Below are positions 31,579 to 35,323 of a DNA stretch of 64,000 nt, in pieces. The position numbers were made by a program, and so were the translations under genes. A model generated the notes under the pieces. The model saw only the letters and a program-made list of their open reading frames with translations. It was not told the DNA's origin and ran no database searches. Position 1 is the stretch's first letter. The number at the start of each line of letters is the position of its first letter. Origin of the DNA: a virus (lineage: Duplodnaviria > Caudoviricetes). The stretch lies in IMG/VR virus record IMGVR_UViG_3300024181_000003, positions 13,801 to 77,800 of that record; one strand, given 5' to 3'.

Positions 31579-31794
31579 CTACTTTTCTCGTTCGCAATCA
31601 ACAACCACGTACGGGCCGGAAGCCGGGTTGAGCACATGGACGGTCGGTGCCTTGTGATCGAGACAGGTCACCACGATTCGCTGCTGCGCCACCTCGTACT
31701 TCAAATTCTCTTGGACAGTGGCGTAGCAGCAGGCGGCCATGAAGAGAAAGAGTGCAATAATCCGCTTGATGCCGAGAATCCTGAGATGCTTCAT
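31579..31794 (-). CDS. Small secreted or membrane protein
   Basis: N-terminal hydrophobic segment, two C-terminal Cys; ATGA overlap with the recombinase stop. Confidence 0.55.
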   Translation of the reverse strand: MKHLRILGIKRIIALFLFMAACCYATVQENLKYEVAQQRIVVTCLDHKAPTVHVLNPASGPYVVVDCEREK

Positions 31795-32708
31795 GCCGCC
31801 CCCAATCGAAAGCCGAGTCCGGCCTTCTTGGTGAAATCCTTGCGTGCTTCGACGTCTTCGCCGATTCGATCATACAAATCGGTGATCGACTTGTCGGCGT
31901 GCCCGGTCCAGAACTTCACTAGGCCCTCGGGCACACCGGTTTTACGGAGGCGGGTTACACGGAAACGACGCAGAGAGTGGAAGCCCGGCACGCCGACCTT
32001 GGCCAAGTGCTCGTAGGCTGTCATGCGGCGGTAGACGCCGCCGGTCTCGGACTGGAACAGGGGCTTCTGGGGCTCCGGCTGTCCAATCCATGTCTGCAGG
32101 TATTGGTTGAGTTCAGGCGACAGGTCAACGGTGCGCTTGCCAGCTGCCGTCTTGGTGCTGTTCTGTATCTCGCCCAAACTGACCGTCTTAGTGACAGAAA
32201 TTGTCATGTTTTGCTGGTCCCAGTCCTCGGACGTCAAAGCCAGCGCCTCGCCGATTCTAAGCCCGGTTCCGGCCAGCAGGGCAATCAGAGCCTTATCTTG
32301 GCCGATCGCCTCTCCTATGGCGGTCTGTATGCGATCAGGGCTAACCGTAGGGGCCTTCTGGTCCTGTATGACAGGCAAATCGATGAAGTCGTTGTTCCAC
32401 TTGCGGGGGAAGAGTTCGTTACCGTTGGCGTCCACAGCCGCTGAGACGACCGACTTGACTACAGCAACCACCCGGGAGATGGTGGCGGGTGCCAAACCCT
32501 TCCCTGCGAGTTTTGCGACGAAGGACTTGAGGACCCCGTTCTCAACCTTGGAGAGGTCGAGAGACCCGAGGTCCGGCAAAATGTGACAATCGAGAGCGTT
32601 CTGATAGGATGCAACGGTCGAGGGCTTGGCCGGGTTACGCTTGCGGCTGCCGATCTCGGCGATGAATTTCACAGACTGCTCTTGAAAGTTCATATATGCT
32701 CCATTCAT
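31791..32708 (-). CDS. int: Tyrosine recombinase/integrase
   Basis: GLRIGEALAL, HSLRR, GH..KSIT.LY catalytic motifs. Confidence 0.85.
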   Translation of the reverse strand: MNGAYMNFQEQSVKFIAEIGSRKRNPAKPSTVASYQNALDCHILPDLGSLDLSKVENGVLKSFVAKLAGKGLAPATISRVVAVVKSVVSAAVDANGNELFPRKWNNDFIDLPVIQDQKAPTVSPDRIQTAIGEAIGQDKALIALLAGTGLRIGEALALTSEDWDQQNMTISVTKTVSLGEIQNSTKTAAGKRTVDLSPELNQYLQTWIGQPEPQKPLFQSETGGVYRRMTAYEHLAKVGVPGFHSLRRFRVTRLRKTGVPEGLVKFWTGHADKSITDLYDRIGEDVEARKDFTKKAGLGFRLGAA

Positions 32709-32714
32709 GAACCC

Positions 32715-32743
32715 ATTTTACTACGAGATCGGTTTTGTGTCAA
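32715..32743 (-). promoter_or_regulatory. Sigma70 promoter, motif-family copy 1
   Basis: TTGACA-N17-TAAAAT followed by GGGTTCATGA. Confidence 0.75.
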
Positions 32744-32850
32744 CAACTATTTCGTACCAGTACTCTCCTCGACTTCCTGTGTCCAAAAACGAACGTAGTC
32801 TGCGCCACCCCAATCGATTTCCGTTTGCGGGTAGCCGTCTCGCAACAGCG

Positions 32851-33115
32851 TGTGACGTACTCCGTCCCCTGAAAGGGACGGCTTCTCAACCCACGGCAGC
32901 ATTACTGCACCGCCGTTAACGGTTGAAGGCTCAGTCCGAGCCTGAGTCGTCCTGACAGAACCCTTGCCACGACGGCAGACGATTTTGCCGCCACGAAGCA
33001 AGAGCCGGGAGACGGTCTTGTGACGTACTCCGTCCCCTGAAAGGGACGGCTTCTCAACCCACGGCAGCATTACTGCACCGCCGTTAACGGTTGAAGGCTC
33101 AGTCCGAGCCTGAGT
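32851..33115 (-). repeat. Perfect 97-bp direct repeat (32851-32947 and 33019-33115) made of the tnpB 3' end and IS right end
   Basis: Identical copies with 168-bp period; each has GAAG-CCGTCCC/GGGGACGG hairpin and ends in TCAC. Confidence 0.95.
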
Positions 33116-34170
33116 ATTTCTAAACTGCTGGCGTGGTCTCTTGTTGTTCGCAACCCGCACGAACATTTGTGCAGCCTGTCCGAAAGTTTCTTCGGAGCCT
33201 TCTTGCCGCACTTAGGGCAACGCTGGCTGGTTCCTCGGGGGTCTACTCTCACCAGTTGGCGACCAGCGTATTCTGCTTTGTACGCCAACATGTTTAGGAA
33301 AGACGACCATCCGACATCAGCAACTGACTTCGCTAGCATTCCACTAGCAAGACCTTTGACGTTCAAATCTTCTACGGCGATGAAGCCGTTTGCGTCTACG
33401 ATTTCACGAGACAGTTTATGCTGAAAGTCTCGACGCTGGTTCACGATGTCTCGGTGAATGTTCTGTACGAACTGCACCGCTTTGCGCCAACGCTTTGAGT
33501 ACTTCTTGCGACGTGATACACGACGCTGGGCACGACGCAAACGCTTCTGTGCTGTTGCGAACCAACGGGGGTTATCTACGATTTCACCCGTTGACAACGT
33601 AGCGAATGATTCGAGTCCAACATCAATGCCGACTTGGTTCGTGTTCTCGGGCAACGGTTGTGCCGAGACTTCGCAACTGAAACATGCGTACCAGTGATTG
33701 CCCTCACGCTTGACCGAGACTGTTTTAATTTTGCCATCCACTGCACGGTGAAGTTTGATTTTGATTTCACCAACGCCTTGCACAAACAGATGCTTCTCTC
33801 GCAACTTGTTGCCGTCTCCGTGCGAGGGAAACGTGATGCTGTCATAGCGACGATGCGATTTGAACCTCGGGTAGCCAGCCTTGCCACCTTGTTTCACACG
33901 GCGAAAGAATGCCTTGAACGCTTTGTCTACACGCTTGAGCACGTCCTGCCCACAGTGACAGTTGGGCAGGTTGATGTCTCCCGCTGCTCGTACTTCCGAT
34001 AGTTGGCGGCATTGCTCGAACAGGTTGACCGACTTGCGGTGGCTACGATATGCGTCTCGACGTTCCTGCAACGCTGCGTTATACAGACGGCACGCTTCTG
34101 ACAACTGTCCACGCAGCAGTTCTTGTTGCACTGCCGTGGGGTACAGTCTGTATTTGAACGTCTTTCGCAT
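33070..34170 (-). CDS. tnpB: TnpB RNA-guided nuclease
   Basis: N-terminal KTFKYRLYPT; RuvC-I GIDVG, RuvC-II VEDL, Zn finger CPKC..CSC, RuvC-III RDH; D-E-D triad intact. Confidence 0.93.
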   Translation of the reverse strand: MRKTFKYRLYPTAVQQELLRGQLSEACRLYNAALQERRDAYRSHRKSVNLFEQCRQLSEVRAAGDINLPNCHCGQDVLKRVDKAFKAFFRRVKQGGKAGYPRFKSHRRYDSITFPSHGDGNKLREKHLFVQGVGEIKIKLHRAVDGKIKTVSVKREGNHWYACFSCEVSAQPLPENTNQVGIDVGLESFATLSTGEIVDNPRWFATAQKRLRRAQRRVSRRKKYSKRWRKAVQFVQNIHRDIVNQRRDFQHKLSREIVDANGFIAVEDLNVKGLASGMLAKSVADVGWSSFLNMLAYKAEYAGRQLVRVDPRGTSQRCPKCGKKAPKKLSDRLHKCSCGLRTTRDHASSLEILRLGLSLQPLTAVQ

Positions 34171-34586
34171 TAGCGTCCTTTTTGGTTCTCAATATATTTC
34201 TTGACCGTTGCTTCTGAAACATGACCGACTGTGCCAGCGTAGTACGAACGACTCCACAAGGTTGGCATCCTCGACACCAAGTGCGGGAACTCCTGCCGAA
34301 GTATTCGGCTGCTGGCACCCTTGAGACGGTTGACGATTTCCGCTACACACCTTGTTGGGTCAGATGTGACAAACAGGTGTACGTGGTCCGGCATCACTTC
34401 CATAGTTTCGATGAGCACGCCGTACTGCTGTGCCGTGGCGTACAGGATGTGCTTGAGCCTTGTCTCCACATCACCAACGAGAACTCTGCGACGATACTTC
34501 GGGCAAAATACGATGTGATATGACAGATTGAAGACGGCTCCAGCGTTCTTGGTATAGCGACTGTCCTTCGGTTGCTGTATCTCCAT
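34170..34586 (-). CDS. tnpA: TnpA Y1 HUH transposase
   Basis: YHIVFCPKYRR, PDHVHLF, LWSRSYY, KKYIENQK; likely start ATG 34586. Confidence 0.93.
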   Translation of the reverse strand: MEIQQPKDSRYTKNAGAVFNLSYHIVFCPKYRRRVLVGDVETRLKHILYATAQQYGVLIETMEVMPDHVHLFVTSDPTRCVAEIVNRLKGASSRILRQEFPHLVSRMPTLWSRSYYAGTVGHVSEATVKKYIENQKGR

Positions 34587-34762
34587 GTTAGAAGTCTGCC
34601 ATACTTCTATCCTGTTTGTCAAGTACTTTAACGCCCTCACCTGTCGCCTGAAGGCGACAGCCCGTCGGGCGATTTATTGTCGAGGTCTGTCAGATCGCAC
34701 TTGTCTGACAGCTTGCCGTAGCGCCATACAAAGCCCGGGGTTTTATCGCTCATGATCACTCC

Positions 34763-35323
34763 TTAGAACGGGATGTCGTCGAGGCCGATATCTTGGTGGC
34801 CTTGTTCGTCGATCGCCGAGTCAGGACGCTCAACTTCTTGATCTCGTCCAACCGTCCCAACCAGTACATCCTCGCCATCGGTGTAATGGCCGATTTCAGA
34901 TAGTACCGCAGACGACGCCTCCGATAACGCAGTAACGAGTTCATGATCTTCCTCTATTTCTCCCGGGCCCACAGCGTCACTTCCGGGTGCTCGTCCAGCA
35001 ATTCCTGAATCATCTTTTGAATCTCCCGGCGCATCAGGCCCAGACGGTGCTGCTCCTGTCCCAGTTGGTCCAGCCGGGTCAGTAGCCAGCTCATTTGTCT
35101 CTGCGCTTCGTGTTTGTTCATCGGATTCCTCCATCGCCTTGGCGATATCTGCTATCATTAGCGAACCCTTGTAGTGTTCGGTGACAGCGTCGATCGGCTC
35201 TTCCGGTTTCGGAATGATCGGCTGCGTCAACTCAACAAACTCGCCGTCGACAACGACTCGACGGTCCTGTCTCGGGCTACGTGCCCACTGTCTCAGCCAG
35301 CTTGGTACGTTTCGGTTTATCAT
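34763..35323 (-). CDS. Acidic low-complexity protein ending in DDIPF
   Basis: 186 aa; last five residues match the SSB C-terminal tip. Confidence 0.6.
   Translation of the reverse strand: MINRNVPSWLRQWARSPRQDRRVVVDGEFVELTQPIIPKPEEPIDAVTEHYKGSLMIADIAKAMEESDEQTRSAETNELATDPAGPTGTGAAPSGPDAPGDSKDDSGIAGRAPGSDAVGPGEIEEDHELVTALSEASSAVLSEIGHYTDGEDVLVGTVGRDQEVERPDSAIDEQGHQDIGLDDIPF

Follow-up and report, generated by a model that had tools for sequence, protein, structure and literature searches.

How could an RNA-guided nuclease gain its first foreign guide without Cas1? Nucleases of the TnpB family load the RNA of a transposon right end together with ~16 downstream bases, and cut DNA in which a target motif is followed by matching sequence. 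The locus described here, which lies within 64,000 nt of phage DNA (the window), is a natural case in which this question can be tested: it offers exact intermediates and a defined motif, and its foreign target belongs to a co-occurring phage in which three putative natural escape alleles are seen. Type V CRISPR arrays have been proposed to come from duplicated omegaRNA segments (PMC10691335).

The locus (Table 1) is a 1,659-nt element of the IS605 group on the minus strand of a temperate phage (phage 1), with both scaffold copies lying 3' of its genes. It combines a Y1 HUH TnpA and a TnpB with subterminal hairpins and matching guide tetramers, as elements of this group do. The closest TnpBs come from a Ca. 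Udaeobacter MAG (77%) and from Acidobacteriota MAGs (58-63%), and a TnpB identical to that of the window was found in eight other contigs. Profile searches left the TnpB far under the cut-off of the C2c8 and Cas12f2 models, and there is no cas1 in the phage genome. In relatives with the left-end guide CGGA, all 18 of the 18 copies follow a CGAT, whichever fifth base precedes it. Under the IS608 pairing rule, which we take to hold here, the guide CGGG predicts the motif CG-N-C, and CGAC was found at the left end as predicted; the right-end guide GAAG pairs with the cleavage motif TCAC, and there is no target duplication. From these pairings we infer that CGAC is the probable target motif of the window TnpB. 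Unitig L042 and contig L036 both start exactly at CGAC, which would imply several left flanks; no second insertion site was read.

The loop of the left-end hairpin is inverted (TGAA for TTCA) in some copies (L040:273-274 and the end of L050), and in the relatives L061, L063 and L083 the inversion replaces the DNA guide tetramer too. Upstream of the element lies a 186-aa gene (window 34763-35323), in place of which several sister contigs have two shorter ORFs of 55 and 62 aa (compared: L035, L037 and L039).

Table 1. Features of the locus, in window coordinates.
Feature	Position	Strand	Evidence
5' part of interrupted phage-1 gene, 25 codons, ending in motif CGAC (34679-34682)	34679..34753	-	Left flank common to all sister contigs reaching past the motif; N-terminus homolog in L001
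IS left end: guide tetramer CGGG (34661-34664), subterminal hairpin (34641-34660)	34641..34678	-	CGGA/CGAT pairing of relatives; start of unitig L042 at CGAC
tnpA, Y1 HUH transposase, HVH motif and C-terminal Tyr	34170..34640	-	PF01797, E 3e-42; NF033573 above cut-off
tnpB, 366 aa, RuvC D183/E267/D345 and zinc finger intact	33070..34170	-	PF12323, PF01385, PF07282; NF040570 295 bits, cut-off 100
omegaRNA scaffold copy 1, native right end: stem 1, pseudoknot loop, stems 2-3, terminal hairpin, TCAC	33020..33115	-	Layout as in the ISDra2 scaffold (PMC10097598)
Guide 1: 17 nt identical to HTH repressor-like gene of phage 2, there after TCGAC	33003..33019	-	Sequence match in L140, L141, L143
Segment F, 55-57 nt hairpin, ending in CGAC when the shared AC is counted	32946..33002	-	Source not found in phage genome, IMG/VR, JGI metagenomes or GenBank phages
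omegaRNA scaffold copy 2, solo right end, starting 4 nt ahead of stem 1	32852..32947	-	Identity of 100% with copy 1; in L142 the third guide comes after it
Guide 2 (32836-32851) and rest of the 3' half of a small phage gene (YDPP...GFP...TLLRDGYPQ family)	32747..32851	-	72% identical to P0015
Promoter-like site and tyrosine integrase, downstream context	31791..32743	-	PF00589; promoter match 11/12 in sister contig L040

A repeat finder and exact comparison both returned an exact 97-nt repeat (33019-33115 and 32851-32947); because both flanks begin with A, which accounts for the 97th base, the unit proper measures 96 nt and the spacer between the copies 72 nt. This confirms the claim of an earlier note on this DNA that an identical 96-nt unit recurs 72 nt downstream, and the details it gave are likewise as described: the hairpin AGGCTC/GAGCCT, the stem TCAACC/GGTTGA, the end at TCAC, both flanks, and a second junction that reads CGAC when AC is counted with the flank. 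There is no third copy of the unit elsewhere in the 77.8-kb phage genome. A solo right end 90% identical to the unit, which starts ~15 nt upstream of the start of the window unit, is fused into a Ser/Thr-kinase-like pseudogene on a bacterial contig (L139:2137-2242).

The duplication recurs outside the window. The JGI contig L038 has the same two-unit layout, yet 14 substitutions and a 15-nt indel separate it from the window; the ENA contig L142 also has two units. Logan unitigs of SRR7687077 and SRR7687075 end 30 nt inside the unit, a break that implies two predecessors, and the downstream unitig of SRR7687077 begins after TCACA, implying two successors that start with A; in SRR7686990 the unitig passes the unit start unbroken, as expected of a single-unit allele. 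These ENA, JGI and Logan assemblies may come from the same samples. Single-unit contigs share an integrase haplotype unlike that of the window. The earlier note had named an assembly artefact as the finding that would undo its reading; judged from contigs and unitigs (L038, L142 and the unitig breakpoints) this is unlikely, and we regard the repeat as real with near certainty. The joint alternative, that the array is an artefact or else a pair of guides against one uninterrupted gene, is scarcely credible: the contigs were built from short reads, but the independent strain L038, the unitig breakpoints and single-unit alleles tied to another integrase haplotype speak against the former, and flanks from different genes and different phages against the latter. 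The perfect identity of the two copies is a sign of a recent event and not of selection. Both scaffold copies are crossed by an open frame that continues into the remnant of the guide-2 gene (window 32747-33211) and in L040 gives a 143-aa HTH fusion; this is probably due to chance.

Each copy appears long enough to serve TnpB. The ISDra2 scaffold of 116 nt comprises stem 1, a pseudoknot (stem 1 loop with -5 to -3) and stems 2-4, with nothing further 5' required (PMC10097598), and TnpB itself trims the 5' end of the RNA, giving processed scaffolds of 79-466 nt (PMC10278001). The 96-nt unit has its parts in the same order as the ISDra2 scaffold, with stem 1 from the fifth base, and a comparison of 12 related right ends shows 100% pairing in both the pseudoknot and stem 2, with wobble and compensatory changes (three compensatory pairs in stem 2). 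Stem 1 with a pseudoknot to the 3' end, stem 2, a terminal hairpin and a guide 3' of the end are thus all present, as in an omegaRNA; an Rfam search returned no family for the scaffold. The predicted fold is correct for each copy alone, and for copy 2 also together with segment F. This part order, the conserved pairing, the correct fold of copy 2 alone and the 5' trimming by TnpB are why we consider copy 2 structurally complete. The concern raised earlier, that 96 nt might be too short for TnpB, can be set aside, since every helix of a TnpB omegaRNA scaffold is present in each copy.

Whether copy 2 is used is a separate matter. In the predicted equilibrium fold of the two-unit RNA, cross-pairing between the copies removes stem 1 of both. 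Copy 2 could then be inert repair debris, with copy 1 alone loaded and the locus an ordinary one-guide IS605 element whose flank came by chance from another phage. Such a reading would fit the possible misfolding by cross-pairing, single-unit alleles (L035, L036, L041) that are at least as common, the solo right-end remnant with another 5' boundary in the bacterial kinase pseudogene (L139), and the lack of a guide-2 target in any contig fetched. Against it, copy 2 begins just ahead of stem 1, has all helices and folds correctly alone or with F, a search for a terminator between the copies found none, and standalone omegaRNAs have been reported to work in trans (PMC10691335). We think inert debris rather unlikely and lean, slightly, towards copy 2 being loaded by TnpB.

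Guide 1 leads to a second phage. The whole HTH gene that it matches, encoding 181 aa, was found by protein search and lies in a second element (L140/L141, phage 2), which has genes for a tail fibre, an HNH protein and a primase and is only distantly similar to the window phage. Of the 72-nt spacer, phage 2 accounts for no more than the first 17 nt, and guide 1 was almost certainly derived from it. The two phages occur together in seven assemblies, some of which may share source samples; phage 2 was not found in the parts of IMG/VR records that were searched. The earlier note had proposed one TnpB with two guides against the uninterrupted allele of one phage gene. An intact TnpB, two complete scaffolds and different guides bear out the first part of that proposal; the single target gene does not stand, the flanks being from different genes and phages.

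The guide-1 site in phage 2 is variable. TCGAC followed by the guide-1 sequence is intact in L140, L141 and L143, whereas L057 has a substitution at +1, L043 has three (+8, +9 and +12), and in L142 a deletion of 24 nt, which keeps the frame, begins at about +10 and spans the zone where the cut is expected. Three of the four variant events in 1,884 nt begin within the 12-nt seed (binomial P ~1e-6), and mutation was not used to retrieve any of the variant contigs. For ISDra2 TnpB, ~12 bases proximal to the target motif are needed and the cut falls 15-21 nt from the motif (PMC10097598); the junction of guide 1 with segment F is at +17. Guide 1 and its damaged target lie on one contig in L142, and since L043 and L142 also carry F and a scaffold, the phages recombine here. 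We think it likely, from the position of the changes, that the seed-clustered variants are scars due to TnpB, and the target variants support the view that TnpB is active in the population. Mutations in the guide-1 site could, however, equally be selected by a CRISPR spacer of the host. Escape alleles would need copy 1 alone (or an IS copy in phage 2), and therefore do not test the array. The foreign target with its seed-clustered, presumably escape, changes is the strongest result of this analysis, and the use of copy 2 is its weakest link.

In phage 2 a PemK/MazF-like toxin gene (L140:7293-7694) lies immediately behind the targeted HTH gene, so that damage to the latter could affect a toxin-antitoxin or immunity pair. 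An endonuclease gene of phage 2 has a 48-nt in-frame deletion in L140 and L141 (L140:6561-6563) and a deletion of ~180 nt in L043 (minus strand 1046); both remove an ACGAC site that is intact in L057 (162-215), and are possibly scars of an unseen fourth guide. The L043 deletion (minus strand 1046) shares its right-hand breakpoint with the junction of the third guide and phage 2 (L037, L040 and L142; L040:1921-1922).

How guide 1 came to its place is suggested by sister alleles, in which contigs with an identical left flank differ on the right side of the element. Type A alleles (L035, L036, L041) have a single scaffold with guide 2 (S2). The type C allele (L040) has a scaffold, a third guide of 16 nt (S3), 394 nt of phage-2 DNA holding a terminator and the start of the HTH gene, segment F, a scaffold and S2. 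Type B (the window and L038) is type C with the first right end joined right after TCGAC in the HTH gene; it is 393 nt shorter than L040, having lost the terminator and the HTH gene start, and the scaffolds are 168 nt apart in the window as against 561 nt in L040. The C-to-B step bears the exact signature of a right end joined to the target motif. TnpA accepts displaced boundaries (bioRxiv 10.1101/2023.03.14.532601), and we infer that it re-joined the right end to the downstream target motif. Three different guides and one or two scaffolds occur across the sister contigs, and the left context (tnpB or F) is seen in all combinations with S2 and S3, as it should be if the scaffold copies recombine. 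In what order these events took place is uncertain: L040 and L142 are short metagenome contigs across the 96-nt repeat and may be chimeric paths, and no IS-free phage-1 allele was found by which to fix the order. The 27 IMG/VR matches to the 16-nt third guide were rejected as chance, none of the 27 following CGAC.

We therefore favour, with a probability of about 60%, an active homing element whose guides are reshuffled by right-end re-joining and by recombination between scaffold copies, and whose guide 1 works against phage 2. The bases after the right end have been exchanged repeatedly in the population, and a second complete scaffold now lies 72 nt behind the first. On this account TnpA re-joined the first right end to the downstream TCGAC, which would have made 17 nt of the repressor-like gene of phage 2 into guide 1 and brought copy 2 into the tnpB transcript, while recombination between the 96-nt copies would shuffle the guides. 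TnpB with guide 1 would then cut phage 2 in co-infected cells, and escape alleles would be selected. A weaker part of the proposal is that copy 2 may be processed and loaded too, keeping a guide against IS-free relatives of phage 1.

The flank of copy 2, S2, corresponds to the C-terminal half of a small gene that is widespread in phages; in its homolog P0015 the residues A-D just ahead of the junction are compatible with CGAC at the protein level. F, guide 2 and the right end had no match in IMG/VR and GTDB, and P0011, which gave five weak matches to the translation of the unit, is an unrelated repeat protein. An in-frame reconstruction of 83 aa, used as a query in the role of the empty allele, did not hold up: the sequence is a chimera of three sources, and it matched an N-terminal homolog only. 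The restored ORF consists of 25 phage-1 codons, 17 nt of the phage-2 HTH gene, ~55 nt of segment F and the C-terminal half of a separate small-gene family. Neither junction reconstruction is thus the empty allele, and the choice between the junctions falls away.

The CGAC junction had also suggested that TnpA inserted a solo right end, which is possible but not favoured. TnpA would have placed a solo 94-nt right end (or a whole IS, later imprecisely excised) after the CGAC of F, with F and the guide-2 gene once contiguous. That F ends in CGAC has a chance of 1 in 16 given the shared AC, F is in frame with the guide-2 gene, and its last codons are loosely like the family residues before the junction; however, F does not align with the conserved N-terminal half of the family (4 residues against 14 conserved), the internal cut would fall at ATAC, which matches neither DNA guide, and the F-scaffold is joined to the third guide as well (L142). 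We hold this route to be improbable. An RNA route, in which a mature omegaRNA was reverse-transcribed and inserted, is prompted by L142, where a scaffold and exactly 16 guide bases lie between two unrelated junctions. It would explain why the 5' end of copy 2 is the structural 5' end and why two of the three guides change to unrelated DNA after 16-17 nt, but TnpB cut positions and TACTCA microhomology give the same boundaries at the DNA level, the L139 remnant starts ~15 nt further upstream, and no reverse transcriptase was found in the 73%-complete phage genome; we consider it very improbable. Both routes to copy 2 are less likely than aborted-homing repair. The six bases with which S3 begins are present in the IS as well, at -97, precisely where the 5' junction of copy 2 falls. 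This suggests that an F-CGAC-S3 site, once cut by TnpB, was mended through annealing at this point, with only the scaffold copied. Copy 2 may thus have come from microhomology-driven, aborted homing repair, a tentative route that we would put forward without relying on it.

Returning to the homing element with reshuffled guides, the best reading of the array is a recent homing by-product and not a dedicated acquisition system. It is doubtful that TnpA acts as a guide-acquisition enzyme. In that role it would join the first right end anew to CGAC sites in foreign DNA, the older guide would stay with the second scaffold, and an element excised at its outer end would take the internal anti-phage-2 guide along to new sites. 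If TnpA did acquire guides in this way, the locus would be a Cas1-free, heritable multi-guide system in phage competition, caught at its origin. The favoured reading itself suggests that a transposon TnpB may act in phage-phage competition, beyond restoring its own element.

Exclusion of a co-infecting phage is known for protein-guided homing endonucleases and has been discussed for TnpB (PMC13565253). The free-standing phage homing endonucleases SegF and SegB are likewise phage-borne nucleases that cut a related co-infecting phage and spare their own (PMC13565253), but in the window specificity is set by RNA and altered by DNA rearrangement, not by protein evolution. The nearest single elements are ISDra2 and ISGst2 (IS200/IS605, TnpB-omegaRNA), which share the tnpA-tnpB operon, hairpin ends with DNA guides, a motif left of the element, a scaffold overlapping the tnpB 3' end, a right flank that is the guide, and a homing-type role (PMC10097598; bioRxiv 10.1101/2023.03.14.532601). 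In contrast to these, the window has a second full scaffold, and guides that are not from the original insertion flank, one of which matches a different phage. TnpA has been described as picking an alternative downstream right boundary (bioRxiv 10.1101/2023.03.14.532601), whereas in the window the right end appears re-joined to a downstream motif.

Two whole scaffolds with different guides at one locus correspond to the sequence definition of an omegaRNA array. Standalone omegaRNAs, omegaRNA arrays (repeats >60 bp) and PATEs resemble the window in that a whole scaffold is duplicated, with distinct guides and a sharp 3' boundary (PMC10691335; bioRxiv 10.1101/2023.03.14.532601). In PMC10691335 arrays are described for RpoE-linked TnpBs, which are immobile and inactivated, or for Cas12f-like groups, whereas TnpA and TnpB are both intact here. 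The window further differs from known arrays and PATEs in a copy 2 that has no left end, in intermediates within one population, and in a target with putative escape alleles. A PATE has both ends and no genes, and no left-end match was found ahead of copy 2. A gene-less, PATE-like member of this IS family with a left hairpin and full scaffold (~220 nt) does occur in L189 (G003:C71:2695-2781), and the MAG concerned contains a full TnpB besides. Five MAGs gave 28 right-end matches (25 beside tnpB, two at contig ends, one PATE-like), and there was no array among them. A literature search, with most subscription papers outside its reach, found no paper on a mobile TnpA-TnpB element that has two scaffolds and a guide taken from another phage and for which escape alleles occur in nature.

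As described in a review (PMC13565253), TranC and type V CRISPR-Cas12 precursors share with the window a TnpB followed by repeat-spacer-repeat, and a spacer against another mobile element beside the nuclease motif. Relative to what is described there, the window has no split into tracrRNA and short repeat, an irregular spacer (17 nt of target and 55 nt of filler), two units and no cas1, and its element is probably still mobile. Where CRISPR-Cas12 and TranC loci have short regular repeats, uniform spacers and a separate tracrRNA, this one has a 96-nt full scaffold and a composite 72-nt spacer. Classified by its sequence, the locus is an IS605-group member that falls within the definition of an omegaRNA array, and is not Cas12, TranC or a PATE; it has the look of a transposon-borne nuclease that gathers guides at a stage when no CRISPR machinery is yet in place.
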